A stretch of DNA of 60,800 nucleotides, counting the filler, from Sphacelaria rigidula (taxonomy: Eukaryota), in NCBI GenBank assembly GCA_964200075.2. It is 7 parts of 7 records of this genome, joined end to end, with 100 filler letters (N's around TTAATTAATTAA, not from the genome) between each part and the next. Parts side by side here need not be neighbours in the genome. Positions count along the whole stretch, not along the records: positions 43,503 to 52,101 come from CAXNAA020010635.1; positions 52,202 to 60,800 come from CAXNAA020010636.1; 5 more parts are not named here. The stretch is one strand, 5' to 3'. The notes beneath the pieces were generated by a model. That model was not told where the DNA came from. It worked only from the letters and a program-made list of their open reading frames with translations, and ran no database searches. The position numbers were made by a program, and so were the translations under genes. Within the stretch, counting starts at the first letter, position 1. Each line of letters begins with the position of its first letter. Shown here piece by piece: positions 18,613 through 60,800 of the stretch.

Positions 18613-19022
18613 GTCGCGACTTGAGGGCAGGAGGCACCTGGCTGGGCGTGAGCCGCTGCGGAAAATTCGGCAGCTTGACCAACATCACGTCGACGTGGGG
18701 ACAACTCCTCGTGTTCGCAGAAAATCACGTTAAATCCACATGCTTCGCTTCGGCGGCCATGATGATAGCAGCGGCCGCCGCTGCCGCCGTCCCGCTCGTC
18801 CAACCGCAAGCGATAGAAGAGGGGGGGACGGGTTCGGCGGCTAGGTCGAGTGCGGTTGGTGTGGCTGCGGGGATGCTGCTTGCCGGGTTGGTGACTGCGT
18901 CGGTTGGGATAGCGTCCGCGAGGCGAAGGGCATCGCGCAGGAGTCGAGGGGAACTCGTATCCGAATTTTTGAAGAAAGGGAGTCAAGAGAACGCGGAGCA
19001 GTACTGCAAACGCCTGTATAAG
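18613..19022 (+). CDS. TANGO2: TANGO2/NRDE-family protein, internal exon 1 in window
   Basis: cacag acceptor, GRDLRAGGTWLGVSRCGKFGSLTN ... SRGELVSEFL ... AEQYCKRLYK, gtgggt donor; hallmark TANGO2 motifs; the N-terminal NRDE exon is not seen on this contig. Confidence 0.9.
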
Positions 19023-19237
19023 GTGGGTGGGGGCATTACTGTTTCCGTTGCGATGACACGCCTGCAGCTGGGTGTGTGTTAACGTTGGCCAGGGAGATCG
19101 CGGCGGGTTGTGGACTGTACAGCTTTTTCTCGATTCGATGTGCCAAAGTCAGTATTCATCTTGCTCTTTGTCTTTGTCAAGGGAGGTGGATGAGAGCATA
19201 TAAAAGTGAGACCACGGTGATTGTGGGACGTGTGTGT

Positions 19238-25745: not shown

Positions 25746-26198
25746 AAGTAGAAGTGCTGCGCAGACATCGGAACGATTTTTTTGTTGGTAGGTCTGTCTT
25801 TGTGACTACGGTCACATTCGTGGCGGATCTGCTGATGTGCGATAGTCACTCATTGTATGGATTGCGTTGGCTACAAATCGCTTCCCCAACGAAGGTGCTC
25901 CTGCCCCCCCCGCTGCGAGGTCAGTGGTCATATGGCTATGGAATGCAAGATCATGAGTACCCCCCCCCCCTCCCCCCCCCCCTCCCCGCTAAAAAGGCTC
26001 ATNNNNNNNNNNNNNNNNNNNNNNNNNNNNNNNNNNNNNNNNNNNNTTAATTAATTAANNNNNNNNNNNNNNNNNNNNNNNNNNNNNNNNNNNNNNNNNN
26101 NNAGCTGTCTATTACGAAGTCGCAGTTTCGACTGTGAAAGTGCAGCGTGTTGTTGTTGAGGTGGAAATCGTCGTGATCTACGCCGTGTGGTGTTGACG

Positions 26199-30355: not shown

Positions 30356-30532
30356 CTTGCCGAGCTCCGTTCGCTCTCGCCGTCTCTCCGCAGCCGCGAC
30401 AGGATCGGTCGCCTTCTCTACCGCGCGCTGCCGCTTCCTTTCCATCCGCTTACGCGAGATTTCCATGTTCACCGCTGTCAACGTTTCCAGGAACTTACCG
30501 CTCCCCACCTTTGCCTCGAGGAGTTCCATGAC
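30356..30532 (-). CDS. UTP20: UTP20 exon
   Basis: VMELLEAKVGSGKFLETLTAVNMEISRKRMERKRQRAVEKATDPVAAAERRRERTELGK; matches the UTP20 C-terminal RKRxRA...DP..AA motif; cag/gtacga splice sites, 59 codons. Confidence 0.88.
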
Positions 30533-30860
30533 CTGTTACGTAAGGGAGAACGAAAAAATCAAGCACACGGGAATGGGGCAAACTGTGTGGGGTCGATCGA
30601 GGACGCAGTTCAAGGAAGCGAAGCTTCTGGAAAGCTGAGAACAAGGACTCGAGTTTCTCTGCTGCCAGTGAAGGGTTATCAACAAGGATTCGAACTGACC
30701 TCGCAATCCACACTACATGGCACCTGACGTACCCATGCTTGCAGCGTACGACTTGAACAAAAGCCGAAACAGAGTCAGTCAGCTTATATTCTGACATCCT
30801 CCACCAACCTCCTCCCACGTCCGACCTCCAACTCCCAGAACGGCAGACACAAAAATATAC

Positions 30861-32231
30861 CTCAGTGGCAAGCTCCGCAGAAGTCTGCTCCTTCACCGCG
30901 CCACCAACACCATTACCACTACCCGCGCCGCCCACCATGCCCCCAGCCCCGGTCGGTAGCAAAGCAGACTTATGCTCCACCCCACCGGCCTCAGCGTCCA
31001 ACACTGCTCTGCGCAAGGGCAGCAACATGACGGACAGAAAAGCAGCAGACACCTCCGGTTCGTGGACAGCGGCCATCGCAGCGAACCAGCTGAAGACGGC
31101 ACGGCGCCTCGCCTCCCCCTTGTGCACCACCATGTGTGACATGCGGTTGAATACCCATCGCAGCGGGTCCACCGGCTTCGTGGTCATTGATGTTGCTGCT
31201 GCTGCTGCTGCTGCTGCTGATGCAGATGGAGATTTAAGAGGCGTCGATTCCGCCGCTCCGGCCCGGGAGGAACCGTCACCCCTGGAAATGTCTTCGGAAT
31301 CGTCCTCAGAACTATTTTCGGAGTCGTTCTCGGAATCTTCCCCCGAACCTTCCTCTTCATCGGATCGTATTTCTTGTTCTTCGCCGTCCACTGCTTTCCC
31401 TCCCTCCTCCTCCTCCTCCCCGCTTTCATCGCCATCGAAGCACAGATCCGGGTTCAGGTGCATGGCACGGCCGACAAACACGAGATTTTTCACGCATTGC
31501 TCACTGAGCTTGGGGTCCACCTGCGACCTGTTCAGTTGCGCGCAGAAGTTCTGGCAAAGTCGGAACAACACGCGCCTGGTGCGCAGGAACTCTCGACCCC
31601 CGTCGTCGCTCGACTCTTGCTCTTTCCCCCTGCCCTTGGGGGTCTGACCAGGATCATATGCCGCCGTCGCAGTGCCGCCGCCTCCCCCGCCACCTCCGTG
31701 GGAGAGGGTCCCCGGATCTCTCTTGGAGAAGAACGAACCCCAGAACCTAGCTGCCGCGAGTCGCACCCAAGCGTGAGGATAGAGTAGGGCTTCCAGAAGC
31801 CGATCGAACAGCCCGCTTGCTAGCGACGAAGACAATGATGAGGACTCTGAATTCTCGTCTCGGTCGCCACCACCATCACCATCCCGCCTGCCCCTGCCCC
31901 AAAGGCTACCAGAAGAGAGCGCCGCGTTACACGCTCCGGGAAGCACGTCAAACGCTTTGCCGACAGAAATCACGGCGTGATACACGCCTTCCCAATCGCC
32001 CCTGCTGTCGCCATCTCCGGAGCCAGCTGAGTCCGCCCAGCCGAGATCTCTCGCGGCGGCGATAACTTCCGCCGCTCTGGGTGGGAGCATATTGGTCAAC
32101 GCCGACAGCAGCCACGGCAGGCGCTTGCCCGTAGTGGTTCCCTTGCGAATGAGATCCGGCCGCGCCTGGACGAAGATTCCGGAGGCTTGGGCAGCGGTTC
32201 GTCGGAGCGCTAGGGCTTGTTGGTCGACCGC
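30861..32231 (-). CDS. UTP20: UTP20 exon (457 codons)
   Basis: LLYPHAWVRLAAARFWG, KLSEQCVKNLVFVG, LRWVFNRMS, RRAVFSWFAAMA, LLPLRR motifs of the UTP20 C-terminal HEAT region; cag/gtatat splice sites. Confidence 0.9.
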
Positions 32232-32571
32232 CTGAGCAGAGCATGGACACAATAAGCATAGTGGGAAGGACGTGTGGGGTGTTGTTTTGCCCGTGTCGAG
32301 CTGCTGGCTGAGAGTGCCGCAAGACCTGATCTCCACCCAATTACTTGATCTTTCGTTAGCTCGCATGCACCACGCGCGTAAGCAGAGCAACCGCACTCGA
32401 AACGCACAGCGAAGCCAATAGACGAGCAGTGCGGTCACACAATAAAAATACATATGAACAAAAATCATGTGAAATGGGAAGCAACACACCGAAATTCGCG
32501 GAGCAACACGGACTCCTTCCCTTTCTACTGCCCACATCCCAAATTACTTAAAGTTCTCTCCCGACTCTCAC

Positions 32572-33935: not shown

Positions 33936-36900
33936 CTGCCATGAGAGGTGAAAACAGGGCGCGCACGCGCGGGTGGGAGGGAGGGGGGGAGCGAAGACGT
34001 CGCCACACGGCGATTCGTCACCTCAAAAAAAATCATTTCGATAAATTAAAAATATATATATATACGACTCATGTGTTTTTGGTTATTTCATTGGAGTAGA
34101 TATTCTGTTTATTTTGTTTATTTTGCTTAGTTGTTTTCGTTTACTGTCTTCCGTTATATTTTATTCGTTTTATACATTTATTTATCCCATTTATGAATTT
34201 CAGACCCCGGCTCGACTCAGTCGATCGAGTGAACCCAAAACTATACCCTCTGCTTTTACTTCATGTGCCTGCACGGAGCGCGGCGAAACGTTGTCGTTAC
34301 AGGAGCCAACAGCTGACGGCAAGAAGCAGCACGATATCACGTACAACACCACACCCCCGGCCCTGGCCTTCTTCTCTTCCTTCCTCTCCTTTTGCCTGCT
34401 TCAGGGGATAGGTAGATTGATAATAACACGAATGGTGACCAAAATAAAGTAGGGTTCGACGCAGCTTCTCGCGGAGTCCCCCCGTCCCTTCTCCCTCGAG
34501 CAAACGCACCACCGCACATACTTGGTCAACACGAGACAACATAATCATTTCATAACGCAATCTTTTCAGCGCCGAGCTATCGAAGATCTCAAACCCATTC
34601 ATTCATCGTCCATCATATTGCGTCCTCCCGGACTAATCCCCCCCCCCCCCCCCCCCCCCCGGGCCGGCGCGCTTGGTTGGGGGAGACGAGACAGAAAGGG
34701 GGNNNNNNNNNNNNNNNNNNNNNNNNNNNNNNNNNNNNNNNNNNNNTTAATTAATTAANNNNNNNNNNNNNNNNNNNNNNNNNNNNNNNNNNNNNNNNNN
34801 NNCCACGTTTGGGTTCGCTCTAGCCAATGTCGCCAATATGAGGCGCTTCATGCAGCCTGAAACCGAACATCCGGCGTTGTATGGCCATTTTTTTCGTGAC
34901 ACTTTCCGCTGGTTTTGGGGGGGGGGGGGCTATCGTAGAAAGTGTCGCACATGATTGGGTCTGATTTTCTTAAAATCGGAGCAGACATCACATAGCCCCG
35001 AAGTTCTCAAGCATGTATGACTCGCCCATACCCTTTGGAGCTATCCACCAAGGGCAAAAGTATCAATCAGGGGGAACCACGTTGAAGTGACATTCAATTT
35101 CCATGACAATAACACACATTTAACGCATCAATGATCTGCTCCCTCCCTGACCGGGGTAGGGTAAAAACCCCATGTTGATTTAAGCTTCGCAATTTCCGTT
35201 CACGGGGAATCGGCTCACATGGTATCGTGCCTTGTAGCATGTATGCACAACCAGTATGGTATTACGGTCACACAAGCAGTTTCGTAAATTTGCAAAGCAC
35301 AGAGTAAAAGGATATTCTTTCACCGTTGCATACGTGGTCATGCATGAGATACTCGAGTAAGTGGTTCGCGTTCCTAAAAGTATATATGTATGTTATGCTG
35401 TATGTACTCGGTACTAATTGTAGCCGACAACCTTTCGATAGCCCTGTGTATCTCTTCTACAGGCAGTTCGTTAACTCCCATCTGCTGGTTGATATCGCGT
35501 TTAGTAGTTTCACTCAGGCAACACTGCCATCACTACCTCATGTGTCCCCACAGTATATAGACTCGAATAAACAGTACAGTACACGGCAAAGGTTCTTCCG
35601 CATGCATAGTCCAACATTTGATATTCGATGGTGATTCGCAACAGTTTTATTCCCAAACGCATATTACTCATGCACTGTTAGACTGAGTACAAAGTCAACG
35701 ATTTCATCGAGGAGATGGTGCAGGCTGTAAACAGTCAGTGCCGTCATCCTGTCCAGCCATATTGTAACAGCGTCACAATAAATATAACGGTTGCATGTCG
35801 TAAAATCCAAGGGTGTAATCGGAACTCAATGTGCGCAGACACACGCGATTTTTAATCCAGCGGGTCTTGTCGAGTTTGAGTACGTGTGGGGCAGCATATT
35901 GTACCGTGGTTCCATTTCAGTCAGCTGTGTGAAACTCAAAAAAACATAGCATATAGCAACAGCAGCGTCAGTTGTGAACAAGTCTAACGTTAGTCTGTCC
36001 AGCGGGGCACCCCGAGCGTGTGGTTACAGCATTATGAATTGCGAACAAAACCAGGATTGTTTTGGTCAGAAACCCAGACAGTGGTGCAATATGCCTATTA
36101 TTTTGTTTTTCAAGTGCGGAACAATTAAGCAGAATTCGTGTGAAGAGCGATCATGAAGCAGGAGAGTTGTCAGTGCCAAATATGACGGTTGTTGGAGGAG
36201 CGCTTGTTTGCACATTGACCACCACTCAGTGAAGACGTGAATGCAGCAATACAATTTTGTGTGCCCAACGGATACGGCGGTTGTAAGCAGCAGTTCAGAC
36301 AGAGCAACACAGTACGGCGTCGTGAATTCTAGACCGCGGTGCGGGTAGTCCCTTTGCGTCATGCATATCTTTTTCCAAGTGAATATTGATGCCAACTCAG
36401 CAGGTGACCTACCCTCGTGGTCAACATGGTCAATATTCACAACGAAATGGCGTCGTACAGCTATGTCATCCAAGAATACAGCATAGCGGTGTAGATAATC
36501 ATTTCATCTTAGCGTAAACCGACGGAGCTGCAGGAGTATCATTGCGCAGGCTTGAGGTGAACACTTAAAACTTCAAGTCCAGCTGGTGTCGGTAACGGGG
36601 CGAAACGGGTACAGTGGTTTCACTTCATTTTGAGTTGCAGTGCAAATCGCTCCTTTCCGCTGCATTGCACAGCAGGAATCGGGCTTACAGCAGGTGTTGC
36701 ATCGAAGAATATAGCAAAGCTGGAAAGAGCAACACAACAGCTGTTGCATGGAAAGATTTAGTAAAGCAGTATAGAGAGTCATGCAATCCTAGCATCCACC
36801 GTGACTCTACTCAATCAGGTCTACACGACAAGATTTGACCTGTCACGGCGATAAAGCAAGCATGGCGTTGTCTCATTCATCACACGGCGAAATCAGAGCC

Positions 36901-38829: not shown

Positions 38830-41800
38830 ATGGTACAGTCTGGCATTTTGAGGGTACGTTCGCATAACAGTATTGCAGCGTGGGATGGTACGGCAAAGAG
38901 TGGTGAGGAAGTAAGAGAGAAGTTCATGGTTTTCAAGCTACAGATGACAGCGTACTTTAAGCAAGAGTCCTGTGAAGAGGCTCTTTACACATTTTTTCCA
39001 ATTAGGGTACATTTTCAAAATGAGCGGGATTTGATCGAGAGGTTTGGGACCGAGTTGGTGGGGAAGGCCAGCAGAGCATGGAGCATACTAGTCGAAAAAA
39101 TTACTTTCACTCCGCTTGTGTAACAACTAGTGAGACTGGGAAACCCCAGCGAGGGATGGAAGTACGTTGTAGACTACTACACCGTTTCTCCAACCACCGA
39201 AAAGGCACAGTTGGACCATGCATGGCAGACACTCGATATGAACTTGGGAGAGGACCCCCGTATGTTTCTAGATAGAGCGAAATTGAGAAGGTACAAACGC
39301 ACTAGGCTTGGAGTCGTGATATCAGATGCAGATGCGAATCGGCACTACATACGCCGCCTTTCAAGTGACTTCGACATCGTTCGTGGTGTATTGCTTGCTT
39401 TCGATGAAGTAACAACAGATACCCTGGAGCGCAAGGTGATGACGGCGCATGGTGAGATGGAACTGGCCAGGAGTAGGGCGGGAAGGAATCAGGATGGGGT
39501 ACAAGGCCACGCGCTCGTCGCTGTCACTGGGGGTGGCAGAGGTGGGGGCGTGCTGTAAAAGGGACGACAACAGGGCGGTGAGGGACGTCGACAGCAGGGT
39601 GGTGTTTTTTGTCATTTCCACAATACGACCCATCACGATGACTCTGAATGCCACGCACAACGAAACATGCACGCACAAGAAAGTCGTGGTGATCGTGGTG
39701 CGTGGAATGATGTTCGCCAGCAGCAATATCAAAGTACAGATAGTTTTGGAGGCCGTGGGGGTAGTGGATGCGGTAGGATTCCCACCCAATCACCGCAGCT
39801 CACTCAGCAACAACAACAGCAGCAACAACGCCAACAACCCCAGCAACATCAGCAGCAAGCGAGATGTGGAGGACGGGGCGCAGGGCGTGGATTTGGTCAC
39901 AGGTACGGTGCTTCGGGGCGTGGGGGCGGCAATACCCATCCCGGCAGCCAACTACCCCACTATGATCCGCCGCAAGGTGGGTATGACTACTCAGCTTATC
40001 CTGATGGCTTATACCGCTCTGTAGGCAACGAACCCCCAGTTCACCACGCCGACCCCCGTAAACGATGCATCACATGCGATGAACTGGGCCACATGCATAC
40101 TTTTTGCCCGTGGCGTAGAGTAGTGACGCCGCAAGTCGATTCGGGGGTACGTCATGCGAATCCCACCCAGAATCAACCTCGTCACGGAGGACACCAGCCC
40201 CCCCCCTGGACTCATTCCTACGGATCGGTCAACACCGTGCAACATTACGGTGACCAAGGGGGGTACGAAGAGAGCAGCCGCGACGAAAAACAGTGGAACG
40301 GAACGGAAGAAGACGGGTGGGTGTTGGAAGTTAGCAGCGACTTCAGCGGTGCAGGCTACGCGCACTGTATCCAATTTCCCCGCGACCCCCCGCAATCCTC
40401 CGCAGCTGCCACCAACTATCAGATCCAGCCATCACCGCAGCAAGGTGAACTTCAACTGCAACACCCTCACCAACTACAACAGCAACAACAACCTCATCAC
40501 GCCCAACCTGATTCCAACCTGCCTTCCTCCGGTTCAGCTGCATCCTCTACGCCGCTTCACCTGTACATGGCACATTCTGTGTCCCGAGGCGAGTCACGTT
40601 TTGAGTTGGGTGATTTTACTTTGGGGATTGCTTTGCTTAACCAGAGTGGGTCGGGGTTTGACGTGGATGATGGTACAGAGGAGTGAATAAGTGATAATGG
40701 TGCTTCACACCATATCACTGGTTCAATAGTTGGTATGTTTGATTTACGCCCCCCCCCCAAAGGAAATGAGCACGTGATTGTGGGGAACGGGACAATTCTC
40801 CCCGTCAGAGCAGTAGGGAGTTTGAAGCTCGAATTCCACATGAGAAATTCCACCGCCCCGACATCTGTCGGTGCGTCCTCAGAATTTTGCGTGCAATTGA
40901 CTGACGTTTACGTACTTGAAGGTATACATTTCAACCTTCTTTCTCTGCACCAAGTGCAGAAGAAGCATGATGTACTCTTAACTGAAATAGGAGTATATAT
41001 GTTTGACGGTAGGCTTCGCTTCGATCGCAATGAGCGGTCTTCGTCACAAAGGGCCACTCGTTTACCGTCAACATATGAGAACCCCCCACTTGCCGTACCA
41101 GCTGTAAGCGCTGTAACTGCCCCTCCCCCAAGCGTTCGTGTCCAGTCCGTTCCTCCGGCGAACGTGGTAACTTCAAGTGTTGGTGTACAGTCCGCTTCAC
41201 CGGCAAGCGTTGTAATTGCCCCTCCCCCAAGCGCTCGTGTCAAGTCCGTTCATCCGGCGAACGTGGTAACTTCAAGTGTTGGTGTACAGTCCGCTTCACC
41301 GGCAAGCGTTGTAACTGCTCCCACGAATGGTGTTGCTTCCCTCCGTGCAGTCCAAGGGCTTCACTGTCCAGACTTGAGTGTATTCAAGGATGAAGCCCTG
41401 ATGGCTGGATTTGACATGACCCCCTCCTCCGAAGATTTTTTCCGCGTTTTCTGATCGAAGAAATGGGATTTTGGGCTTAAAACGGGATGGCCCTTGCTGT
41501 TCTTGCCCCCAGCCCTCATCCATTTTCAGTGGGAAAACCAACGCAAGAAGTCGACCTTAATTTTTCCACGTTTCCCTCCCCCACATTCATGAGACGTTAC
41601 TCCGAGAAACTGAAAAACAACAGGGCATTTCATTGACGGGGGTACTGGCGCCGTGTGCTGGGTGTTTGGAAGCGAAGGGACAGAGAGCAGGTATTCCTCG
41701 AAGCCTGGGAACGAGGGCAACGACTGTACTTGGCAGGGTGCATCTCGACCTCACCGGTCCACACCCTCGTACTTTGGGCGCATCAACCCATATGCTGGGC

Positions 41801-43402
41801 TGCGTCGACAGCAAGTCGCGCTTCATGATGTTTTATGGCCTCGCACGTAAGTCTGACACGCTGGCGAAGGTGAAACGTTTCATCGCCGACGTCAGCGCCA
41901 TCGGTACCCCCGGTTGTTTTCGCATGGACAACGTGGGCGAGTTCACCTCCACCGATTTCGGCGCATTCTGCGACGATGCAACGATTCGTCGTGAGTACAC
42001 TGCCCCTGACACTCCGAAGCACAACGCTGTGGTGGAAAATGCAATTTGGAGGGTCATGAAGGGGGGCCATGCCGCCCGTCTCGAAGCGCGACGTCTGTTC
42101 CCGGAGTGCCGCTTCGACGACATACCTCACCTGGGGGAGAACATGGAGCGCCTGTGGCTGGAGGCCGCGGTGTGGGCAGCGGACGGGTTCAATCGTTCCG
42201 CTACTACGGCGAACCCGGGAATACTGTCGCCGTATGAAGTGTTCACCGGCAAGCGCCCGCCGCGACAGATTGTGCCGTTTCTGCAACCCAGCATGATGCG
42301 GGTCAACCGCCGAGGCAAGATGGATGCTCAGTCCGTGGCTTGCCATTACCTCATTAATGGCAGTAACCATTCTTCATCGACGGTCGAGGTCCTGAAGGCT
42401 GCTACCGGTGCCGTCTGCTACACCAACAACGTTGTCTGGACAATACCGCGTGTGCCACTGCAGTCGTCGGCAACGCCGATCGTCGGGGGGGAGGAGGCCC
42501 ATTCCAGTACCGTCGCCGCCGCCGCCGCCGCGCCGTCAGCAGAGCAGCATCACGGGACGCCGCTCGCCGGGGGGGGGAAGGTCCAAACGCCGCTCGTCGG
42601 GGGGGAGGAGGTTCATGGCAGCACCAGCACCGCCGTCGCCACACCGCTGCTCCCGCCGACGTATCACACAGTGGAGTTCGAACCGCCGCCGCCGCGCCCG
42701 CCGACTCCGCTGACTGAGCCGGTACTACCGCCGCCGACGGACCCGTCCACTACGCCGATGCACCGATCGCCGCCGACATCCCCGCCGATATTCTCCGGCT
42801 CTTCGGCCCCGATACCGTCCCCGATCCCGTCAGCATCTTCCTCGGCTGCGTCGCGCGATGCATCATCCGCCCCTGAAGTGGGGGATCATTCTTTCTCGCC
42901 GCTTCCAATCAACGTGAGGAAGGAGCTGGATCTGGAAACAGACCCCCAGCAGCCAGGGTGGATGCGGTCAGGGTCGACGCAATACAAGACCGACGAGGCT
43001 GCACTCTTGCACCACAGCTGGGGACTCATGCAGCAGATGGATGAGCGATCTTCGCTGTCTGCTCTCCTCACGCGCGGCGTGGTTGATGCGGGGCGACAGG
43101 GCGAGGATGGTGAGAAAGGGGGGCCAGGGGGGATACCGATGTGACTCGCGACGAGGCTGGCGACGCGTGAAGATATAAATACCGCTTTGCGTGAGCAGCG
43201 CCCGCCGCATATCCCACCGGAACTCCCACATTGTCCAGCAAAGGATCTTAAGGTCCCCAACGGATACACGCAGGTGGTGCGCTCGGAGTACGGTGATTTA
43301 TGGAGGGACTCGATGGGGCGGGAATGGCGGGGAATTCTGGAGGCGGGGACGATAGACTCAGCGGAAGAGCAACTCGTGGGCAACTGTATCCATGCAAAGT
43401 GG
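38830..43402 (+). mobile_element. Decayed Ty1/copia LTR retrotransposon (gag-PR-IN-RT start), truncated at contig end
   Basis: UBN2-type gag (MNLGEDPRMFLDRA, YIRRLSSDFDIVR); CCHC knuckle CITCDELGHMHTFC; protease *ISDNGASHHITG; pre-integrase H...H...CAGCLEAKG; integrase HLDLTGP / RMDNVGEF / NAVVENAIWRV; RT start PNGYTQVVRSEYGDLWRDSMGREWRG...AKW; stops at 39121, 40684, 43142 plus frameshifts. Confidence 0.95.
41107..41320 (+). repeat. 99-bp tandem duplication (~2.2 copies) in copia PR-IN linker
   Basis: APPPSVRVQSVPPANVVTSSVGVQSASPASVVI repeated in frame. Confidence 0.9.
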
Positions 43403-46400
43403 NNNNNNNNNNNNNNNNNNNNNNNNNNNNNNNNNNNNNNNNNNNNTTAATTAATTAANNNNNNNNNNNNNNNNNNNNNNNNNNNNNNNNNNNNNNNNNN
43501 NNTCCCCGTCCTGTTTCGCCGTCTCTGGCCACCATCTATCCCCTAGTATAGCCATCGTTTTCTCCCTACTTGGTCAGAAGGGGGGGCGATTTATCGGGGC
43601 GCGGTGTTGGGTTTGATACGCCAATTGATTCAATACCGTCAAGGGTTAGGGCCAACTTGGGGCGCTTTTGGATACGATTCGTCAGGACGCGGGGTTGATA
43701 GAGCTGTGCTGATAATAACCGGCGTTTATAATAGGGGCCAAAATGGGCGTTTCGACCGTGCGACAATGCCCGTGCACCTTGCGGGTGAACGCCGCCCTGC
43801 TGGGAAACCCCCGGTCTGTTCGGGTGATACGAATCACCATTTTTCTCTCGCCTTCGATGAGAAAGACGGGGCAATTTCTCGTCACATGTTTCGAACCATA
43901 TATTCATCCCCATTTTTCACAATTTCATCCCCTCGTATTTCATCATCTTTCGATGCGACAGGGCCTAGCACAACCAATCGACAACTAGGAGGAGCATAAC
44001 AGTCAACAACGATACGCACGTCAAACATGCCGCAAACGACTTTTTTTTTTTTAATGTCCCAACAACAACCATTGTGCACCGCCAGTGTGTACACGTACAC
44101 ACGAACCAAACATGAGAGTTTAGATACAAGAAAGAAAAAAAAAGGATCAGGTAGTGAACCAGGTGGACGAAGAGAGTACATTTTATCAAGACAGTAGAGT
44201 TTGTAAAGGGAGAGCAAAAGGCAAGGCCGCAGATCTACAGGGAAAAATACGCAAGCACAAAAACAGAAGCGATCAAGGAAAAGGAAATGCCCGGAATGTG
44301 CTGCCGGAATGTACCACACCCTGGAAAATGTTATGTCAATAGTTGCAGTTGGCCTGTACTTTGCGCAGTACATTTTTCGTCTAATGCAATTTTTGACCAT
44401 ATATTTTCTAGGGTGTGAAAATGTACACGCACACAACTACACACAGTCGTGAAACGCGTGGAGCAACCACAGTTCACAAGAAGAAAAAAAATTGACAGGT
44501 GATCACACAAGGGCAGGCCAGCAATGCGAAACACACATGATGTGTACAAACACTTTACTGCTCTCCCTCATGGGCTTCTTTATGCGTGTTCATATTAGTT
44601 TCATAAGCCCCTACGGGGAAGATCCCTACGGGGAAGATCTAATGGCGGAGAGAGCGACTGGACGCTGTTGCACAAGCGGCACTCGGAACGACCCGAGGAC
44701 CCGAGGTGCCCTCGTCCATTTTCTGGGGGATCTCCTGTATTGTAACTATTTCACACATTGGACAATACACGGTCAATAGTTGCAACATCCTAAAAATATA
44801 CCGCATAGTATGGTATAGGCCTATTGCACGTGTTGTCGGGTCTTTACCTAACCCTTAGACCGCGATCCGCGTAGTCCGTCTGGATCGCGCGTGCTTCAAG
44901 TGAAATTGATGCCGATTCAGCAGGTAACCAAATCCTCGCGGTCAAAGGGATAACGCGGTGCATTTCTCGTCTACTGCAACTATTGACTACTCTGGAGTAC
45001 TATTGTATACACTGTCCAAGGTGCAAAGTATTCAAGTATTCTCTCTGACAGATACACCAAAACAAAGCAAAGGCAGGTCAACCAGCCACACGAATGTCAC
45101 AATTCTCACGGTAAGTCAAGTAAACACACACACACGACAAACACGTGACGCATACCTCCGAATATGTAGATGCTGTCCTTCAACACAGCCGCCGCGTGTA
45201 ACGAGCGCTGGCAAGGCGCCCCCCCATCGGGCGCACAGTCCACCTTAGACCATCCCCACACCGCCGAAGACATACCCTCCGGGACACGGCAGAAGCTGAT
45301 CCAGCTATAGCTGCTGCAAATACGCCACTCACCACTACCGAAGAACCCGCGATCCCCACAGATAACGGACAGTACTTGGTATGGCTACAAAAAATACACT
45401 GCCCCTTATCAATGGCAGAAAGGGGGGTGGGGGAGTGCTGCACCGCAGACGGTAAGTGACACAAGAAACACACCACCGAGCTGGCGTGCACACAACACAC
45501 ACACCGCGTGCTTGATGTGTACGCCTGGTGTGTGGATATATATATGTATGTATATATACTTCAACCGTGGACAAAAGGAGGATGATTGATGTCGGCAGTA
45601 GATAGGACACACCACGCTCGGTAACACGCCGGCGCGTCCCTGTGCTGTAGACCTTGCTTTGCTCCGCCGTCACAGCCCGCCCCCCCGCCCCCCTACACAC
45701 TTGCCAAGAGAAAGCGAGCGCGCCTGCTGCCAGCTGTCCTCCTCTTCCTACGTAGTCTGGCGGACGTGAAGAGAAAACTCGCAGAAATAGCTGGCCTTTC
45801 CGTCAACTCTCCCCGCTTCCACGTTCTGCTCTACTGATGTTGGCGATGGGTGATGTGTTGTCGCTCTCGAGTGTGTGCGCGTGTGTGTGTATGTCTCTTC
45901 AGACGATCCAGTCACAGGCCCCCAAACCAACCCCGGTGTGTACCACTATCACACCATTGCATGTAAGTAATGCACGCGCACGAGATGGATGACATACATT
46001 TGTTTTGTTGTTTTTTGGAAAAAGACGCCAAGACACGAGACACACAAACGCAAGCACGCAGGGAAGGAAGGAAGGAATGGTACACCGGTGCGCGCGACGC
46101 AGCATGGGCGGGGACAAGCAAAGGAGAAAAGAGAAAGGATGAAAAATCGATCGCTTTTTTTACCGATGACGAACATCACAAAATCGAATTATGACGGCTT
46201 GGAGAGGGGTGGCGGTAGCGGCAGCGGCAGCGGCGCGTACATTGAGCGGTGGTTCGCTTTACTCATCTCTCACGCACCTATTATTACACTGTCAGGGCTT
46301 TATGTTGGTGTCGACAGCGCTGTGCGCGGAGCGTGTGGGTACGGTAAAAAACACCCGAATGACCCTTCGTGCTGCTTCGACCACAAGTAGAGTCGTCCAC

Positions 46401-51485: not shown

Positions 51486-52789
51486 AAAATCTTTTTGTGC
51501 ATACTACTCGTGCATAATCTTTCTTACCTCTGGGTTGCTAAGGGTCTCGATATTTTGGGGAGGGTATAGCGCAGTTTCAAGTAGTACTTCTCCCTCGTGC
51601 GGTGGTATACGACAGTTGGCTCGGAGGTCATCTCCCATTATAGAGCTTATGACGAGCTGGATACCATCTTCAGGCACTACCAGTGTGCTCTTGCTGGGAA
51701 TGCCGGTTGTGCGTGTGCCTATGGGGCGCAACGGTCTGTCGTAATTCCACCGCACTGTGTGAAACGAAACATCTCCAGACACAATGGCAAGAGACGTACC
51801 CGGTACTCAATGCAGGACAATGACATCATCGCCAAAACTGCACCGATCAAGCAGGGGCGGTGCCGTGTGTTACCAGGTTAGTCTGCAGTTCACAGTGATA
51901 TGCTCAAGTCGCGCTGATTTGGGAAACTCGAGAAGTTGTAGTGCGGAGAGAGAATGTGGGATTTACTGCCGGCCCAAAACCAGAATTTCACCACGCAGGC
52001 TACCCAGCAACCAAATACAGAGGATTTGAATGGAAACGGCTCCGTCAATTTTGCAGAGCAGTACTGGGAATATGCCATTCAGATGAAGCCAGGAGAGATG
52101 ANNNNNNNNNNNNNNNNNNNNNNNNNNNNNNNNNNNNNNNNNNNNTTAATTAATTAANNNNNNNNNNNNNNNNNNNNNNNNNNNNNNNNNNNNNNNNNNN
52201 NTAGACCAGTATACATACCTTGGCGTAGAGATCTAAAAAAACTGTTCTTGGGATGCACATGTAATGCGTGAGTGGACCGCGTGCTCAGAGGACCGCATCT
52301 GGATTCGAACACCCCAGGACCGACATGGCAGGAGGACCGCGCGGGCGTCGTCGATGCCGCGACCGCGCCTAGGCCCGACCTGGGCCGCGCATTTTATCGA
52401 GCCAGGAGTAGCAAAGGCAGACGAATTGCACCTACTGTTGATCGGCACGCACAGCTACCAGCTGCATACACGGCCCCAACGTGGCTTGGTACTCCCGCGT
52501 ACTACTTTTGTGGCTCGTTAATCACAGGTACTGAGGTGTTTTGGGCCGCGCATTTCATGGAGCCAGGGGTAGCAAAGGCAGACACGTATTGATGATCGGC
52601 ACGCACAGCTTCCAGCTGCATAATACTCCCGGGTACTGAGGTGTTTAGGAGTTAAATACGGTCCTTTAAGCACGCGGTCCTGTCACGCATCACAACGGAT
52701 CGCAGAGAGTGATCCACAAACACCTGATCAAGCGAAATATAATATCCGCGAAAAAGTCATGCCAACCTGCAATTACTGAGATTTCATTC

Positions 52790-54450
52790 AGGCGCGGTCC
52801 ACAAGCTACTCCTGCAGCGCTCCTTTATATACAGTGCGCACAGGAAAACACCGCAAGGGTTAGCGAAACGAAATAAATGGAACCCCAGCGCAGGTACAGA
52901 GCGGGCGTCGAAAACGCTGGTGTCGAACATAACGCAGATCAAGCACCCCACATACTCATCGACCAAGCACAAGCAGTCCGTGAAAACGCTATCTTCCAAC
53001 TGTTACATGGAACACAGAAGTCCACACGACCCGTCTCGGGTTGCAGCTCTTCGGAACCCGCAAGTACTGAGACGTTGTGTGCCCGCGTTGCACGACCTCA
53101 CTCGGCCTAGGGAGGGAGCGAGCGTCGAAAACCCTGACCTTACATATACAACAGGGCAATCATCCGAAATGTAGAGAAATCAACCCATATATGTCTGTAG
53201 GTCCGTCGAACCTGGAAGTACTCGTACTTCATATGACCGCGGTCCACGAAACAACCCCCGAGACATTCCTCTCCAAAACTTCTCCCTGTCTGGGGCCGTG
53301 TCCGACTGCAGCTCGTCGAAACCTGCTAGTACTGACACTTCATATGGCCGCGGTCCATAACATAACTCCGAGACCTTCCCATCTGATACCATTACTGAAG
53401 ACAAGCGCACGGCGCCGGAACCTCAGCCTAAGAGGAGAGCGACCGTCGAAAACCCCGACCCTCATGGCCTGTAGCAACACACCTTCACGTTGTCAAATCA
53501 AAGCAATAGGGGTATTCTCCTCATACGAGCCCCGTCTGACCGCAGCTCCCCCAACCCTGCAAGTTCTGACACTTCATATGGCCGCGGTCCATAACTCCGA
53601 CACATTCCTCTCTTAAACCTTGCGCTAGAACAAGGACACCGCGCCGGAACCTGAGCCTAGGAGGAGAGCGACCGTCGAAAACCCTGACCCCGATGACAAA
53701 GCAGGTGAACCATTCCAAAAATGTGCAAATCAAGCACTAGTATTCCGTAGAAACGATATTCTCCTATGTGCACACTCTATAACAAGATCGGGCCGGTAGC
53801 AAACCACCTTAATACTGTCCCCCGAGATGGATAGATCGGTTGAGTGGTTGTCACACTTCAAGCCCCCCCCCCCCGCCTGAAGGATCGAGCCATGGTCACA
53901 TCGAAGTCGTACCCGTTAAAAGCACGACCGAAACACTCGCTGAAAAAAACGAAGGAACAGACAAGGTCACGACATCGTATACTAGGACGCGAAAAAAACA
54001 GGATAAACATTCAACAAGAGCAAAGCACAGACACCAATGTCCGATCTGAAAATATAATATAAAAGATATAGAAACAAAGCACAGGCACCAATGTCCGATC
54101 TGAAAACAGAATAAAAATGAGATCTAACTGAATATTCCGCTCATGGAAGCCGTATCCGGTTGCAGCTCCTCCGAACCTGCAAGTACTGACACTTCATGTG
54201 GGCGCGATCCACGATCGAAGTCGGAGAAATTGCTATTTGAAAACACCTGTGAAGAGCAGCGCACTGCGGCGTTCGAAGCGAACCAGCGTCGAAAACCTTG
54301 ATCTAAAAAAGAGCAGTCGAATCATCCAAATTCGCCATCTTCGCAAGTGCACCAGAACTTGTGCAAGGTGGGGCTCCCATAAGCTGTATCACACTGTACG
54401 TTGTCGAAACCTGCGAGTACTAACGTTCTATATAGTTGCGGTCCACAACG
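52790..54450 (+). repeat. Degenerate subterminal tandem array
   Basis: Motif gcagctcNNcgaacctgcaagtactgacacttcatatggccgcggtcca at ~53042, 53196, 53307, 53541, 54160, 54398; motif gNcgtcgaaaaccctgacc at ~52905, 53122, 53444, 53673, 54286; separate ~55-bp tandem duplication at ~54018-54125. Confidence 0.85.
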
Positions 54451-54723
54451 TAAGTCTGATACGTTCTGATGTGAAAACTCCACTCAAGATCTTCTACTGT
54501 GAAACTGCTTCTCTCATCGCACTGTCATCACGTGTTGGCCAAAATGACAGGAGTGTGCGAAGTAGCACTCTCGCACGAGCAACTTATCCCTAACCTTAGG
54601 TCGACGTTATTGACAGATACACTACTGTTCCAACGGCCGTTTTTTCGTGCGCGCCGCGACTCCTTCATCTTTTCTCTCCTAATCGGCGTTGGTGTGTCCG
54701 CCCGCAATGCACAATCCCGATCC

Positions 54724-57300
54724 TCACCGCCCGCTGCCGCCTACTCTCGCCCTTTTCTTTTTCCCTGTCCCATTATCCGAAGGGGGCAAGGGCAACCTCG
54801 GCCTTTGAACGGCGGCTACTTGCGGTTTAGCGTTGACCGTCGTGTCGAGGCCGGAGCCACCCTTAAGTTGCCGTGGCGTCATGCCCACCCGGGAACTGCC
54901 GTAGATGAGCCTTGTGATATTCCGACCCAACATTGGTCTCTTCGTCTTCAGAATCGGGAAGTGTTCGTCTGGATATATCTTGTTCATTTTCTGCTCTGCC
55001 TTGACCCCGAGGAAGGACACACAGTGTTCACTAATTTTCTCCGCTGCTCTCCGCTGCAGCGGGGAAAACACCGAGGGGATCCCACGCCACCAGCACCGTC
55101 GCCCCCGGCGTGTGCAATCTGGCGAGGAGACTCGCTGCGGCGGTTACCGACGGGAACTGATCAGCCAAGTCTTCCCGGCACACGGCCGTTGTCTGTGCGC
55201 CCGCTATCACGTCCATGTGTCCGGCCAAGGTTTGCCCGTGCGCAGTTTCATTCCTCTCGTAGGATAGTGGAAGTGTCGTTGCCCCCTCCCCGATTAATGT
55301 GAAGAGATTCCCAGAGGCCGGCTTCCGCCACGGCAGGAGGGGGTCGATCGTCCTCGCGCGTATCTGTCTCAGGACGACGGTGTCATCGGGTGCATGGGGT
55401 GGGTAGGTCACGACAGTGTGAACGACTTTTCGCGGGCACAAAAAACACTTTGTCGGCGTAGAGGTGTGCAGATCCGCGTACAGTAGAAACCAGTCATCCA
55501 CTGTGGCGGAAGTTCCTGCATAACACCACCGCGACGACCGTACATCGTATCGTTCGCTACGGTTGTAAGGAAGAGGAGGACTCTCACCCAATGACTATCT
55601 ATACCTGTGGATGCCGATCCTCTCCTCCGCCGAATATGGCTAGCGCACGTGTTGGGAGGACCCGCCACGTCGGGTCCATATGACAACCGTAGTCGTCCGC
55701 TGGAGTGGTTCGCCGGTGGAATCCGCGGTCAACATCGCCCTTGAAAGGGATGATGTTAAATGGAACGTCGAACGCCTTTGTTCCGCCGCACAAGTCAGCC
55801 TGCGGATACCCGATATAAACGAGGGTGGCGACGTGAGTTGTGTCTGCGTCCAGCCGGACTGCTGTATCGTGACAAGTGCTCTGTCTATTTGCACATAAAC
55901 TTGAATATTCTCCCGTACTGGATCATCTAGGGCCAGGCATGTATCAATACGGCGATTACAGGACCGTGTCAGTCAGCGTGTACCACTGGCGCGACAACGT
56001 ACCATCATCTTCAACGCCGTCTTGCAGGCGTGTGCCCAGTCGGTGTCGTATCCTTCGGTGTTGGTCTTCTTGCGGAACTCGCGGCTCTTGTCCACGACGA
56101 TGACGACGGGTAGTGCATGAAGCCCCCCGTCAAGCATCACGGCTTCTAGTTCTTGCCGCAAAGATTGCATTTTTTGCGGGTCATTCACCGGTACCACTAT
56201 AGTTCCGACTCGTGAGCGGAACTCGCCATCTCCATCCTTCTTCACACTGAGAGCGGTCTTCACGACGTCCGCGGCGACGAAGCTCTTGCATGTCCACGAT
56301 CGCACATGCTTCATGGAGGGTACATACATTCGGCAAGACAGACGCGGACTGAAGGCGAAGATACCACGATTTCGGTTCTTTCAATCGAAGTGGATCATGT
56401 CCTGCTATTTAGGTCCGGTGCCGGTAGTATCTCCCCTTCGGGTTAGCAACAATACGCGCTGTCGCCTCGTTTCATTCGCGTGAGGATGTTGTCCCAGGTG
56501 CGGTGCATCGACCAAACCGGCCAACAAAAACGCGTACATCGCGACTGACGCTATATGGGAGTGTGGCGGCGAATGTGTCGTCCCGGCCGTGGTTACGCCA
56601 TCGTAATTCTAACATCGTATGTGGGAAGGTCGAGTTACTCGTCTCTGCCGACTCACCTCTCACGCTGTACAAGTTGGACGAGATCCACAAACGTCGGTTT
56701 CAGTGACGTTCCGTGCAGTTCGTTATCCACCACCGCGACTTTCCTGGCATGGGCGGAGTAGTCGGTTTCGTTCCCGAAGTAGTGCAGCGATACCGGGATA
56801 TTCTTCAAGAACGGCGGCCCATTATTGGGTTCGTATGGCGTTGACTTCCGATTTAGGTGCAGTGACTCTTCGGCGGCGCCCTGGCGTCGTAGTTTCAGGT
56901 CGGAGGCGATGAACTGACCCGCCTCGACTCGGTGGAAGCCGCCGAGTAGCTCTGCTTGAACCTGTGTGCAAATAGCGTGGCGCATAATGCGAAGGGGATT
57001 TGTATCTATTTGTACGGTGCACGTCACCGCGAGAACTTGAGGTACCGCGGGGGTCACTGCATTCCCGTCTTGGCTACTGTCACGTCCACCCCAGCGTAAG
57101 GTAATGAGTAAATGAGTCTCGCATCGTGCTGTATCATCTCCACCTTTGTGGTGTCATTATTGTTATCGTATCATCGCACTTATTCCATAAACGACGACGG
57201 TGAGGTCATTTTCACACGATATGTAGTGGTTTTCGAACCGACACCAGAAAGTATATTTTCCCGTTTGTTTGAATGTTGCGACCAGTGTGCACAACTCTTG
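54724..57300 (-). pseudogene. Intron-containing pseudogene: ParB-N-like domain plus beta-class N4C/N6A DNA methyltransferase-like domain
   Basis: Exon 56961-56657 (cacag / gtgagt): AELLGGFHRVEA...LKNIPVSLHY...ARKVAVVDNELHG...TFVDLV. Introns 56002-55800 and 55587-55516. Last exon: FLLYADL...VVHTVVTYPPH...WRKPASGNLFTLIG...DQFPSV...LLARLHTPGATVLVAWDPLGVFPAAAE[K]ISEHCVSF...KKKRAR; stops and frameshifts present. Confidence 0.55.
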
Positions 57301-57422
57301 TCAGGCGAACGGCAGAAGATATGCTATATACATGTGTGAAACAAGTGTATGCGAAAAAACAATGCCGCCCCCCTAGGAGCTTTCGTTTTGCTTTATTTCC
57401 TTCACAGGGGGGGGGGGGTACT

Positions 57423-57633
57423 TGTAATGGGAGAGATGACCGCGTGCTTTGGGGGCCTCACCCTGGCTCTAAACATGTCAGGATCGATTTTTTTCAAACC
57501 GATCGGGCGTGTTCCTCCAGGGACCACGGCCCTGGCCCTAACCCGAACACTAACCCCAGCCCCCGCCGTAGCCTTAGGGGTGTTAAGAAGTAGAGTGCGG
57601 TCCCCTGACGACGCGGTCCTCTCACGCATTACA
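57423..57633. mobile_element. 211-bp MITE sharing the TGTAATG...CATTACA TIR, with telomere-like internal repeats
   Basis: tgtaatgggagagatgaccgcgtgctt ... gacgcggtcctctcacgcattaca; internal ccctggccctaacccgaacactaacccc. Confidence 0.7.
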
Positions 57634-58580
57634 GAACTCATCTTGCATGCCGTACTAGGTGGGCAAGCCTAAAGGCAGCTTTGTAGTTTGCAGGCCCATA
57701 CGCTGGCCAATATTTCGAGCTGAACCCTAGGATTTGTTGCGTGCAATTAACATTCTGAATATGAGAACTCACGCGTGGACCCCATTTTCTATTGTTTAAT
57801 TATTGATCGTGTCTTAGTGATACCATTGATAGTCGCTGATTTGCTTCAAGTCTTTGAAATTAGAAAATGTGTCGATCCACGCGTGAGATAGTTTTTTTTT
57901 CCCCATTCATTGTCCATATCGAGTGTTACCATCCAGCTGTGAATATTCGTCGGCGACTGGGAATTTTACTACCCGGGTCGGTGGCACACGGGATCGGCAT
58001 TTTGCAGACCCCTCAGCGGTTCACGTTCGTGATTGTGTACAAAAATAGCGTGTGGGATGTGGCTGGTGCATAACCAAGTACAAGAAAGGGGTCAGCTTGT
58101 TTTTTGTACTCCTGCTTTCGGTGGTTTTGATTTACTAACCCCCTTTTTGGCGACATAGCCGTGGTATGTTCGGCGGGTCGCATGAAGGATGAGTTTCGTT
58201 TCTTTTGCACTGTTCGGCCCGAAACGTATTGATGATGTACGATTTGGATGGCAGCATCGAATGATTTCATGCTTTTCCCTGGATCACCTCTTCCACGGGC
58301 AGCCACGAGGTACACCCTGCCGCGACCGTCTTCCTAGCGCAAGGCTGAGGTCCTCCTGCCCATGCTGCTTCACGATCGTGACGGTTACCACGAACAAACA
58401 CGCAAGCGAACAGAATAAAATATACCCTTGGTTGCCCACCTGGCGTTGTGAGGCGGATATTTCCCAGCTTCACCGCAAACCAGTGGCGAGCCCGTAGGGG
58501 GTACACCCTTTACGATCGGTGCGGAGCGCGGCGGGTGGAAGGGATCTGGCAGCTGCCGCCCGCCCTCCCCTCGACCGTAA

Positions 58581-59018
58581 AACCCGGGGTTTTACAAATT
58601 GGGGATGGATTTGTTTTTCAGGATGATAAAGCCGTATCACCACAAACTTCGTATCCACACCGCGTCTTCGGAATATGAGCCCATATCTTTACTTCATAGT
58701 AGCGATTTAAAACTACCTTACGGCGTGCAAGTTTGGATTCCGACGACCGAAATGTTGGGGTCGTACGTTAAATACGCATCTCGGGGAATGTCGCTGATCT
58801 CATCGGATAAAACCCGCCGAAATTCTTGCTTTACCCGGAACCCCTTCATGTCGGTTATCAGGAGCCGAACTGGTATGACGCGTGGTAGTTGTCGAAAGTT
58901 ACCAGGAGTCGAAGATGTGGACCTATATTTGAAAGATTTGGTGTGGTTACAAAAACGTCAATCGTGTGGGTTCTCCTCCCCAATGAAGAGTCAACCCCTC
59001 ATTTGCCAATTGTTTGTT
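58581..59018. mobile_element. Diverged relative of the 444-bp palindromic MITE
   Basis: aacccggggttttacaaattggggatggat...cttcgtatccacacc...gatttggtgtgg...ctccccaat; TSD not preserved. Confidence 0.7.
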
Positions 59019-60800
59019 CGAAGTTCCACAATACAATCCCCTTTTAAACCGATCGACGTAATGTAATATGCCATATGAGGGAGCGCGAAGCAGGTGGAGG
59101 GCGTGTGTAGGTGGGGCGGGGTGGGTGGGTGGGGGGGGGGGGGGGAGGAGGGGCATGTGAACCACGCACGCCCGTGCTACGTAGGGGCGCAAAACGTTTT
59201 ATCGACATCGGGATGAACAAATACAACTGCGGCCCGCAATGAAGAAATAATTAGCTTAGGATATCAGTTTGGGTCTGCGACGGAAAATAAGAAAAAACGA
59301 CTGAGAAACACTTCTCAAACTGGGCGATAAGATAATGAACATGAAAATGAGAAACAGTGCGGATACGTACCTATCATAGGCATAAGGAATAAGAATGTAG
59401 GTGCCTGGGGGGCCCCTTCCTAATCGCGAAACGTGCACTCTACATTTAGACCCCCTCCCTCCCCGTGCTAAACTGCATCTTTGTGAGAGCGGTGTAAGTT
59501 CTTGATTTACGGCTGTTTCATGCTAAACACTGTAGACCTGCCGGTGTGTTTTTCATTGGGCATTTTGTGTGCAACGAGGGGGTGGTGGAGGCAGTACATG
59601 GAGGATACGAGAAAGCGATAATTTCAAGAAAATAAACAGGACCCGGTCGGCCGGAAATATTACGAAATTCGACATAAGTAAAAAAGCAATCTGTGCTGGT
59701 GTTTGCGCCCGAAATACGGATTTGGGCCTCGACCCCAAATTGACGTTTCTTATCTCCGGGCCGCGACTGCAAGAAAGGACAGGAAACCGACAGGATTAAA
59801 GAATATCAAAAATAAAGTGGAACACATCGCGAGAGTAAGTACTCTTCACTACATCAACTGGAAGTATGATGAAGGCGGAACCCCTACAACACTTCATGAG
59901 TATGTGGGGTGCTTGGTCTGCGTTATGTTCGACACCAGCGTTTTCGACGCCCGCTCTGTACCTGCGCTGGGGTTCCATTTATTTCGTTTCGCTAACCCTT
60001 GCGATGTTTTTCTGTGCGCACTGTCTATAAAGGAGCGCTGCAGGAGTAGCTTGTGGACCGCGCCTGAATGAAATATCAGTAATTGCAGGTTGGCATGACT
60101 TTTTCGCGGATATTATGTTTCGCTTGATCCGGTGTTTGTGGATCACTCTCTGCGATCCGTTGTGATGCGTGAGAGGACCGCGTGCTTAGAGGACCGTATT
60201 TAAGTCCTAAACGCCTCAGTACCCGGGAGTACCAAGCCATATGAGGGTCGTTTATGCAGCTGGAAGCCGTGCGTGCCGATCATCAATACGTTTCTGCCTT
60301 TGCTACCCCTGGCTCCATAAAGTGCGCGGCCCAAAACACCTCAGCACCTGTGATTAACGAGTCACAAAAGTAGTACGCGGGAGTACCAAGCCACGTTGGG
60401 GCCGTGTATGCAGCTGGTAGCTGTGCGTGCCGATCATCAGTAGGTGCATTTCGTCTGCCTTTGCTACCCCTGACTCGATAAAATGCGCGGCCCAGGTCGG
60501 GCCTAGGCGCGGTCCCGGCATCGGCGACGCCCGCGCGGTCCTCCTGACATGTCGGTTCTGGGGTGTTCGAATCCAGATGCGGTCCTCTAAGCACGCGGTC
60601 CTCTCACGCATTACAGTTACCCTCCTCTCGCCGCATTGATTGCTTCACCATGGGCTATGTATCGACAACTTGGTCTGCGCGAACAACGCCTGACGCGTGC
60701 GTGTTGTTGCAGGTGTTGAGAAAATATATCCCTCGTTCGACAATCAATGTGACCGAGCCGGTTTCGAAACCAGCCACGCACAGTTACTGGCGGGAGTTCT

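Follow-up and report, generated by a model that had tools for sequence, protein, structure and literature searches.

The transposons of Ectocarpus, as set out in the accessible part of a 2025 study, include giant KDZ, EnSpm and Sola-1 elements with unrelated transposable elements (TEs) nested in them, along with many non-autonomous families that carry genes (PMC12477816). The same part describes a 21.5-kb element, Sola1-1_Ec32, with an accessory gene for a 1104-amino-acid protein that combines ParB-like and N4/N6 DNA methylase domains and for which binding and modification of its own transposon have been proposed (PMC12477816). In the red alga Bostrychia, the available portion of a second report ascribes to Plavaka elements the accessory genes PAG2 (N6-adenine methylase plus SET) and PAG3 (ParB plus 2OG oxygenase; bioRxiv 10.1101/2025.02.11.637652). 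From the excerpts at hand, the methylase domain of the DIRS1 retrotransposon polyprotein is judged inactive by substitutions of catalytic and substrate-binding residues (Iyer et al. 2016, PMC4738411), and N4CMT of bdelloid rotifers is an active amino-methylase of bacterial type that a eukaryote has acquired and that is connected with the control of transposons (PMC8885841). Here we describe a locus of Sphacelaria rigidula in which long inverted arms (positions 52260-60615) enclose a repeat array and the relic of a gene whose last exon defines a small protein family, here the WDPLG family. It lies in a window (the whole stretch of DNA that was analysed, 60.8 kb) made of seven ~8.6-kb pieces that need not be neighbours in the genome, and it fills nearly all of the last piece (52202-60800). 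We read the locus, with the chances evenly balanced, as a decayed, non-autonomous algal DNA-transposon-like unit; the copy in the window is rearranged or internally replaced, and it is dead.

Inverted arms, termini and subterminal repeats

Self-comparison, BLASTN and the sequence of the ends and flanks delimit a left arm of 700 bp on the plus strand (52260-52959), which starts with TGTAATGCG, and self-comparison, BLASTN and the divergence of sequencing contigs delimit a right arm of 720 bp on the minus strand (59896-60615), which ends with CGCATTACA. The outer ends read TGT...ACA and 6,936 bp are enclosed between the arms, so that the coordinates, ends and ~6.9-kb interior given in an original prediction for this locus are correct. 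Its description of the ~700-bp inverted repeats as diverged was overstated, as the arms match in one ungapped stretch of 364 nt (96%) and another of 336 nt (97%), on either side of a 20-nt indel, an insertion in the right arm relative to the left, and BLASTN aligns them at 93.5% over 720 columns. Each arm is a composite, with a module resembling a miniature inverted-repeat transposable element (MITE; 435-455 bp) on the outside and one unit of the internal array (265 bp) on the inside. The left module (52260-52694) is bounded by 39-bp inverted termini of its own and contains a tandem duplication of 154-161 bp, and the right module (60161-60615) is its mirror. On the basis of repeat families and the terminus pattern, which has six matches in the window, all within the last piece, the right module and a solo MITE of 211 bp (57423-57633), which has the same terminus family and is inserted between the arms, could be delimited.

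Contigs from four public sequencing runs (X1, X3, X4 and X6) were placed on positions 52900-60800, with summed contig depth taken as a rough measure in which ~25 is the single-copy level; because this measure is only rough, no copy number is stated. In run X1, divergence sets in after 60615 in 244 contigs, after 60616 in 115 and after 60617 in 89, with a consensus agreement of 0.32-0.33. X1, X3 and X4 are alike in this respect (244-277 contigs diverging after 60615, a further 82-115 at either of the two positions that follow, agreement ~0.33), and the summed depth of the last bin reaches ~3e5 compared to ~25 for single copy. Since hundreds of contigs from three DNA runs pass into unrelated sequence exactly at 60615-60617, this is a true repeat terminus: the last 40 bases of the arm are the end of a very abundant repeat family and, as looked for in a terminal inverted repeat (TIR), are common to many copies with unrelated flanks. 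Many other copies of this terminus (60576-60615) in contigs of X1, X3 and X6 show a degenerate telomere-like repeat, CTAACCCTAACCC, just inside the 40 bp, and the most abundant members of the family seem to carry telomere-like repeats internally. We also observed contig joints from 60615 to 60158 and from 57633-57638 to 60161, which place MITE modules elsewhere head-to-tail or 25-30 bp apart; the family tends to cluster or nest. A search of JGI metagenomes with the MITE terminus returned no match.

The internal repeat array that had been predicted is present at 52747-54505 (families D1-D4 and D12), as a series of diverged subterminal units, 60-86% alike, that carry GGACCGCG or the near-palindromic GACCGCGGTC, the latter in three units; Tandem Repeats Finder (TRF) does not call it tandem. 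Its first unit lies within the left arm, where members of families D2 and D3 occur at 52747 and 52884; these families recur at 53031-54505, and at least five further units extend beyond the arm. A single inverted unit (59940-60091; I13-I15) is found within the right arm, with a GGACCGCG site at 60055. The window has 13 exact GGACCGCG sites, a count reached by none of 100 shuffles (1.5 expected), and every one of them falls within the termini or arms, the array units or the middle MITE. A terminus followed by subterminal repeats with a common motif is the usual architecture of a DNA transposon end, and the motif that the subterminal repeats at this locus have in common with the terminus argues in favour of arms and array belonging together.

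Depth runs unbroken at 2-15 times the single-copy level from 52900 to ~56440, over the left 4.2 kb with the arm, the array and the 3' part of the gene relic, and in X1 a contig of depth 65 stops at 56442, overlapping a contig of depth 24 that begins at 56413. A low-copy repeated block thus takes in the left arm, the array and two-thirds of the gene from its 3' end, and the right half is copy-specific. Several results weigh against taking the 8.3 kb as one mobile unit. About 1 kb of the interior (56596-57387) stands at single-copy depth (24-28), and the right half holds unrelated high-copy repeats (57650-59250, including poly-G at 59113-59153; summed depth 900-62,000 in X1), with depth very high across 57900-59250; on both grounds, the arms are possibly not the ends of one unit. 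Comparison of the flanks, which read GGGATGCACA up to the left end and GTTACCCTCC from the right end onwards, revealed no direct repeat of 2 bp or more that could be a target-site duplication (TSD), whether at the outer ends, around either arm alone or around any of the three MITE modules (no value for the TSD length of Sola elements was found in the literature searched). No transposase or any other TE domain was detected in 23 interior open reading frames (ORFs) searched against Pfam, and none of seven ORFs matched PHROGs; the lack of a TSD and of a transposase had been recorded in the prediction and holds.

These results give a real, if somewhat doubtful, chance to an arrangement in which the arms are two separate ~700-bp non-autonomous elements (MITE module plus repeat unit), or a local inverted duplication, that bracket by accident a truncated element fragment made up of left arm, array and gene, together with host single-copy DNA and other insertions. 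At the start of each arm stands a complete MITE-like module whose family is very abundant, a third module stands alone, and a 1,116-nt contig of run X6 contains 60089-60615 at 94% with a different outer flank, showing that the arm composite exists elsewhere; the end of the raised-depth block near 56413-56442, the single-copy segment behind it and 8.3 kb without a TSD point in the same direction. However, a TSD is missing from each arm taken alone as well, each arm continues for 265 bp beyond its MITE module, and this stretch is a unit of the same array that adjoins the left arm, array and terminus both carry GGACCGCG, and the arms are 96-97% alike, against 60-86% for the array units. Moreover, nested unrelated TEs are common in the published giant algal transposons, as far as the accessible part of that study goes (PMC12477816). 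Of the algal DNA-transposon-like element originally proposed, the long arms with a high-copy terminus, the motif-bearing subterminal repeats and a broken multi-copy gene stand, whereas its being a single unit is unproven, given the missing TSD and the ~1 kb of single-copy DNA. A single mobile unit, internally replaced and with nested insertions, is one of two readings of the 8.3 kb, and we hold it to be an even bet; the other, which is less likely, is a truncated element with an unrelated solo arm close by.

A minus-strand gene relic and its relatives

On the minus strand, G+C content rises to 55-57% over 55001-57000 and long open frames succeed each other. Two of these, ORF D (55034-55594) and ORF E (54727-55143), are frames of the gene relic that had been predicted here, a prediction now strengthened by four relatives. 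Searching 1.84 billion representatives with ORF D by HMMER gave six matches at E<=0.001, three of which are true relatives (P0001-P0003; E 1e-27, 6e-12 and 4e-10); the other three, multi-stretch alignments on long bacterial repeat proteins, were dropped. A profile search added P0008, which is 69% identical and intact across the point at which the frame is shifted in the window. These four proteins (P0001, P0002, P0003 and P0008, from public assembly contigs; 39-69% identity to the last exon) align from residue ~80 of ORF D to its end and then straight into ORF E, including the basic C-terminal tail KKKRAR that the prediction had pointed out and that is common to the relatives. Because all relatives begin at DP..PWRK, the residues upstream of this point in P0002 are unrelated and a phase-0 acceptor lies at 55364, we set the conserved last exon at 55363-54727 on the minus strand; it comprises a methylase-like C-terminal half, as judged by the profile comparisons described below, and the basic tail. 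ORF D and ORF E are put out of frame with each other by a 10-bp tandem duplication (55038-55057, minus-strand GCAGCGGAGA repeated once; TRF 2.0 copies, 100% match), and since this duplication splits frames that the relatives read through, the window copy is a pseudogene, in line with the dead copy originally proposed.

Upstream of the last exon, phase-compatible GT-AG pairs delimit candidate introns of 241 bp between ORF C and the last exon (55604-55364), of 122 bp (56002-55881) or 203 bp (56002-55800) between ORF B and ORF C, and of 308 bp between ORF A and ORF B (56656-56349). Regarding the two short introns named in the prediction, the 203-bp pair indeed joins ORF B to ORF C in phase, but the 72-bp pair (55587-55516) leads into a non-conserved frame, and both are candidates. 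Candidate exon C (55605-55880, minus strand, its start possibly at 55799) reads DVPFN...RVLPTRALAIFGG, a possible methylase motif IV-VI region, and had no match by phmmer. Candidate exon B (56003-56348, minus strand) is an open frame without detectable relatives or domain in the part of the block that reads as 2-4-copy, next to the boundary near 56413-56442; a word-index search among longer proteins gave no match, and two weak phmmer matches were unrelated and rejected. ORF A (56656-57153, minus strand), an open frame at a depth of 24-28, is doubtful as a part of the gene because it is single-copy and its sequence search returned only its own sequence; its NCBIfam match to cas7_csf2 (E 0.036) is irrelevant. 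None of the contig joints of the four runs over 52900-60800 coincides with any proposed intron, and the X6 contigs over the gene cover 54821-54989 and 55118-55485 only and are uninformative on expression or splicing. The gene family had no match in JGI metagenomes or IMG/VR, and the ESM Atlas returned no usable match with ORF D.

Possible methylase descent and the ParB question

For comparison with the beta-class amino-methylases, IMG/VR relatives of a phage methylase and of E. coli YhdJ were used to make alignments of the PF01555 type, and the last-exon family was represented by a profile of five rows, in which the window row was read through the break with X. When this profile was compared by hhalign with five PF01555-type profiles, P was 0.0028 and 0.0041 for two broad profiles and 0.02, 0.2 and 0.3 for subgroups. 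The placement was always on the C-terminal motifs, and against the broad profiles it was colinear over 146-219 columns (P 0.0028-0.0071), pairing PW.K with W.K, FPSV..A..LL.R with HPTQKP..L..LI, G..VL..WDPLG with G..VLDPF.GSG, and A...G..C.F.G.K with A...gr.FIGiE. The score of 27.2 was reached by none of 150 column shuffles (null 13.0 +/- 2.3, maximum 22.5), while the reversed profile scored 11.8 and two ParB control alignments 14.5-14.9. In an ESM Atlas feature search with P0008, the sole Pfam-bearing set shown was a PF01555 cluster (rank 23, score 0.87).

A number of results tell against this relationship. PF01555 was matched by none of 23 ORFs at E<=1 and by none of four proteins (P0001-P0003 and ORF D) at E<=10, NCBIfam gave no relevant match for seven proteins, a PDB profile search gave none at E<=10, and tblastn of P0008 against phages likewise gave none at E<=10. 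With a hidden Markov model (HMM) built from 43 methylase sequences and run with --max (all filters off), scores did not exceed 4.9 bits. The hhalign probability is <=11% throughout, three of the five target profiles give P>=0.02, an alignment of the relatives alone gives P 0.08-0.32, and as single sequences three of the four relatives score inside the range of 139 decoy ORFs. AlphaFold2 models reached a predicted local distance difference test score of 33 for ORF D (5 rows) and 37 for P0008 (6 rows), too poor for a fold search, and the ESM Atlas match, below 0.9 and with 127 of 256 features in common, is a lead only. Motif IV is ambiguous: in exon C, DVPFN falls under DPPYN and then RVLPTRALAIFGG under RVLKpgG..f, with P 0.18 for this exon alone and nothing added to the score. 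PLPYN, in the upstream part of ORF D, was rejected as motif IV, since its 4.4 bits (E 0.59 over 676 window ORFs) are at chance level and the stretch is probably intronic. The first rank of ORF D among the 676 ORFs against the methylase HMM is not counted as support because of this E value and because the relatives make the stretch intronic. A Pfam match of ORF D to PRORP (E 0.0025, below the cut-off) is spurious and falls on the same DDWFLLYA stretch as the chance-level methylase HMM match.

In a rival explanation, the WDPLG family is unrelated to methylases, a lineage-restricted orphan, TE-borne or host-derived, with the likeness G..VL..DPLG...A..G..F.G arising by chance. This explanation, which we consider tenable but rather less than probable, accommodates the uniformly negative library searches, hhalign probabilities that depend on the target profile, single sequences inseparable from decoys, the lack of a confident fold, and a motif I with a three-residue insert in the would-be strand 1 and without the GSG loop. 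It does not readily account for a real profile that outscores every shuffle (z ~6), for a placement that in each comparison fell on motifs X, I and II, or for an independent language-model lead to the same Pfam family, and the same architecture is published in algal transposons, according to the accessible parts of those reports. Of the beta-class motif order claimed by the prediction, a weak but better-than-shuffle match of the family profile is left, accompanied by degenerate motifs for S-adenosylmethionine (SAM) and negative library searches. On the strength of the profile comparisons, we somewhat favour the view that the last exon of the WDPLG family has its origin in the C-terminal half (motifs VIII, X, I and II) of a beta-class N6/N4 DNA methylase of the PF01555 type.

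The canonical beta-class motifs, worded here partly from the consensus of our own PF01555 alignments, are DPFxGSGTT for motif I, a Glu in motif II and (D/N/S)PP(Y/F/W) for motif IV. By comparison, motif I reads WDPLG(V/S)xx(A/T)(A/G)A in all five members of the family, without the GSG loop and with three residues inserted before DP, and the acidic position of motif II is Lys in four of the five members and Glu in the other. If the methylase descent is correct, the domain is, judging from these residues, unlikely to be active as a methylase and, because the glycine loop and the motif II Glu are both degenerate, an intact protein would more likely bind DNA than methylate it. As the SAM-binding motifs are degenerate in all five members, the proposal that the element marks or protects its own copies by methylation is unlikely to apply to the WDPLG family.

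The prediction had also recognised a ParB/Srx N-terminal domain in one exon, and this we could not reproduce with Pfam, our own profiles or hhalign. Pfam gave no ParB/Srx (PF02195) match at E<=1 in 23 ORFs. In an unfiltered search of the 676 window ORFs with ParB_N profiles that we built from 41 bacterial loci, ORF A came at rank 229 and ORF B at rank 233, and ORF C was not among the reported matches. Comparison with a ParB profile by hhalign gave no signal (P 0.79, 0.56 and 0.63), and phmmer against PDB gave no ParB or Srx. In a search for methylases fused to ParB, a ParB-sized N-terminal extension was found in none of 80 IMG/VR relatives of L070, and the large virus records contained no ParB_N. 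The DRGFHRR and GCH stretch of ORF C may have prompted the earlier ParB reading; its statistical weight is nil. A eukaryotised fusion of ParB-N with an N4C/N6A methylase, active in intact copies and marking or protecting its own transposon copies by methylation, is most improbable: such terms are used for the accessory protein of Ectocarpus Sola1-1 (in the accessible part of PMC12477816), a repeat array lies beside the gene and the basic tail is conserved family-wide, but ParB gives no signal in Pfam, our own HMM or hhalign, the glycine loop of motif I is absent from all five members, four of which have Lys in place of the motif II acid, and the window copy is frameshifted.

The locus beside known mobile elements

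In our interpretation of the locus as a decayed DNA-transposon-like unit, the arms, the array and the minus-strand pseudogene of a small conserved protein family would be what remains of the unit, and the single-copy DNA, the solo MITE and the unrelated repeats of the right half (56442-59895) would have come in by rearrangement or internal replacement. An intact protein would use its methylase-derived domain, after loss of cofactor binding, as a DNA-binding module, and its basic tail might, by a weaker inference, carry it to the nucleus. Candidate binding sites would be the GGACCGCG-bearing repeats beside the gene and in the termini, a scheme modelled on the ParB/methylase accessory proteins of giant algal transposons. 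An extension of this scheme, to which we attach little probability, is that the WDPLG family forms a distinct, undescribed lineage of eukaryotised beta-class methylase derivatives without cofactor binding, kept by long-TIR algal transposons for sequence-specific binding to the GGACCGCG subterminal repeats that they themselves carry; it would then be a self-recognition pseudo-methylase, separate from the Sola1-1 ParB-methylase.

The remainder of the window is ordinary eukaryotic context, with retroelement domains and fragments of eukaryotic genes: Pol_BBD and integrase-core frames (40687-43141, plus strand), a TANGO2-like exon (18390-19079, plus strand) and a UTP20 C-terminal-like frame (30498-32543, minus strand). 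The pieces are separated by spacers of the form N44-TTAATTAATTAA-N44 (8602-8701, 17303-17402, 26003-26102, 34703-34802, 43403-43502 and 52102-52201), and the left arm begins just 58 bp past the last of them. Within the right half of the element region, a ~430-bp repeat (58580-59005) resembles 12584-13028 and 16664-17109 in another piece (66-69%, both orientations). Reverse transcriptase and RNase H frames (14241-15885) lie between these two copies, and a retroelement, DIRS-like or of another type, may have this repeat as its inverted terminal repeat. The 41-nt G-rich homopolymer run at 59113-59153 coincides with a huge depth spike and many loose contig ends, and probably lies at the border of a further abundant repeat.

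The general idea of such a locus is not new, since the ParB-like plus N4/N6 methylase accessory gene of Ectocarpus Sola1-1 is already on record in the accessible part of that study (PMC12477816). If the methylase descent is true, the locus would be a second and more degenerate case of a prokaryote-type DNA-modification module on algal DNA transposons. The protein and the motif-sharing repeat array, as candidate binding sites, would then make up a concrete and testable pair that bears on how elements recognise themselves through accessory proteins. With a dead copy and a general idea that is already in print, the locus is of value for cataloguing and perhaps for its pseudo-enzyme aspect rather than as a new principle, and it is a modest addition to the known algal elements, not a discovery.

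Compared by description only, and within what the accessible part of the source gives, the locus is like Sola1-1_Ec32 in being an algal DNA-transposon-like unit with a prokaryote-type methylase-like gene. The Sola1-1_Ec32 protein, however, has 1104 amino acids and domains recognised by InterProScan or HHpred, and its gene lies opposite the transposase, whereas the relic in the window amounts to at most ~400 amino acids, with no ParB signal, no library match and no transposase, in a unit of 8.3 kb. With Bostrychia Plavaka, as presented in the available portion of that report, it has in common a putative accessory gene of the chromatin- or DNA-modifying kind in a DNA-transposon-like setting and repeats beside the gene, and adjoining tandem arrays are proposed as binding sites there; Plavaka differs in superfamily and in domain partners, the window relic having a single methylase-like domain with degenerate cofactor motifs. 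The likeness to prokaryotic and phage PF01555 methylases such as E. coli YhdJ is weak and consists of the colinear W.K, motif X (P..L...L), motif I (G..VL..DP[FL].G...A...G) and motif II (F.G.[EK]), and the window family stays below every curated threshold and departs from them by the insert before DP, the missing GSGTT, a motif II that is mostly Lys, DVPF at motif IV, candidate introns and a basic tail of nuclear type. DIRS1, in the excerpt at hand, likewise has a methylase domain that is borne by a mobile element and likely inactive, but this domain belongs to a PCIF1-derived methylase group and is part of a retrotransposon polyprotein. Finally, the rotifer N4CMT, in the excerpted description, is an active host enzyme, in contrast to the degenerate relic of the Sphacelaria locus, which appears to be transposon-borne.

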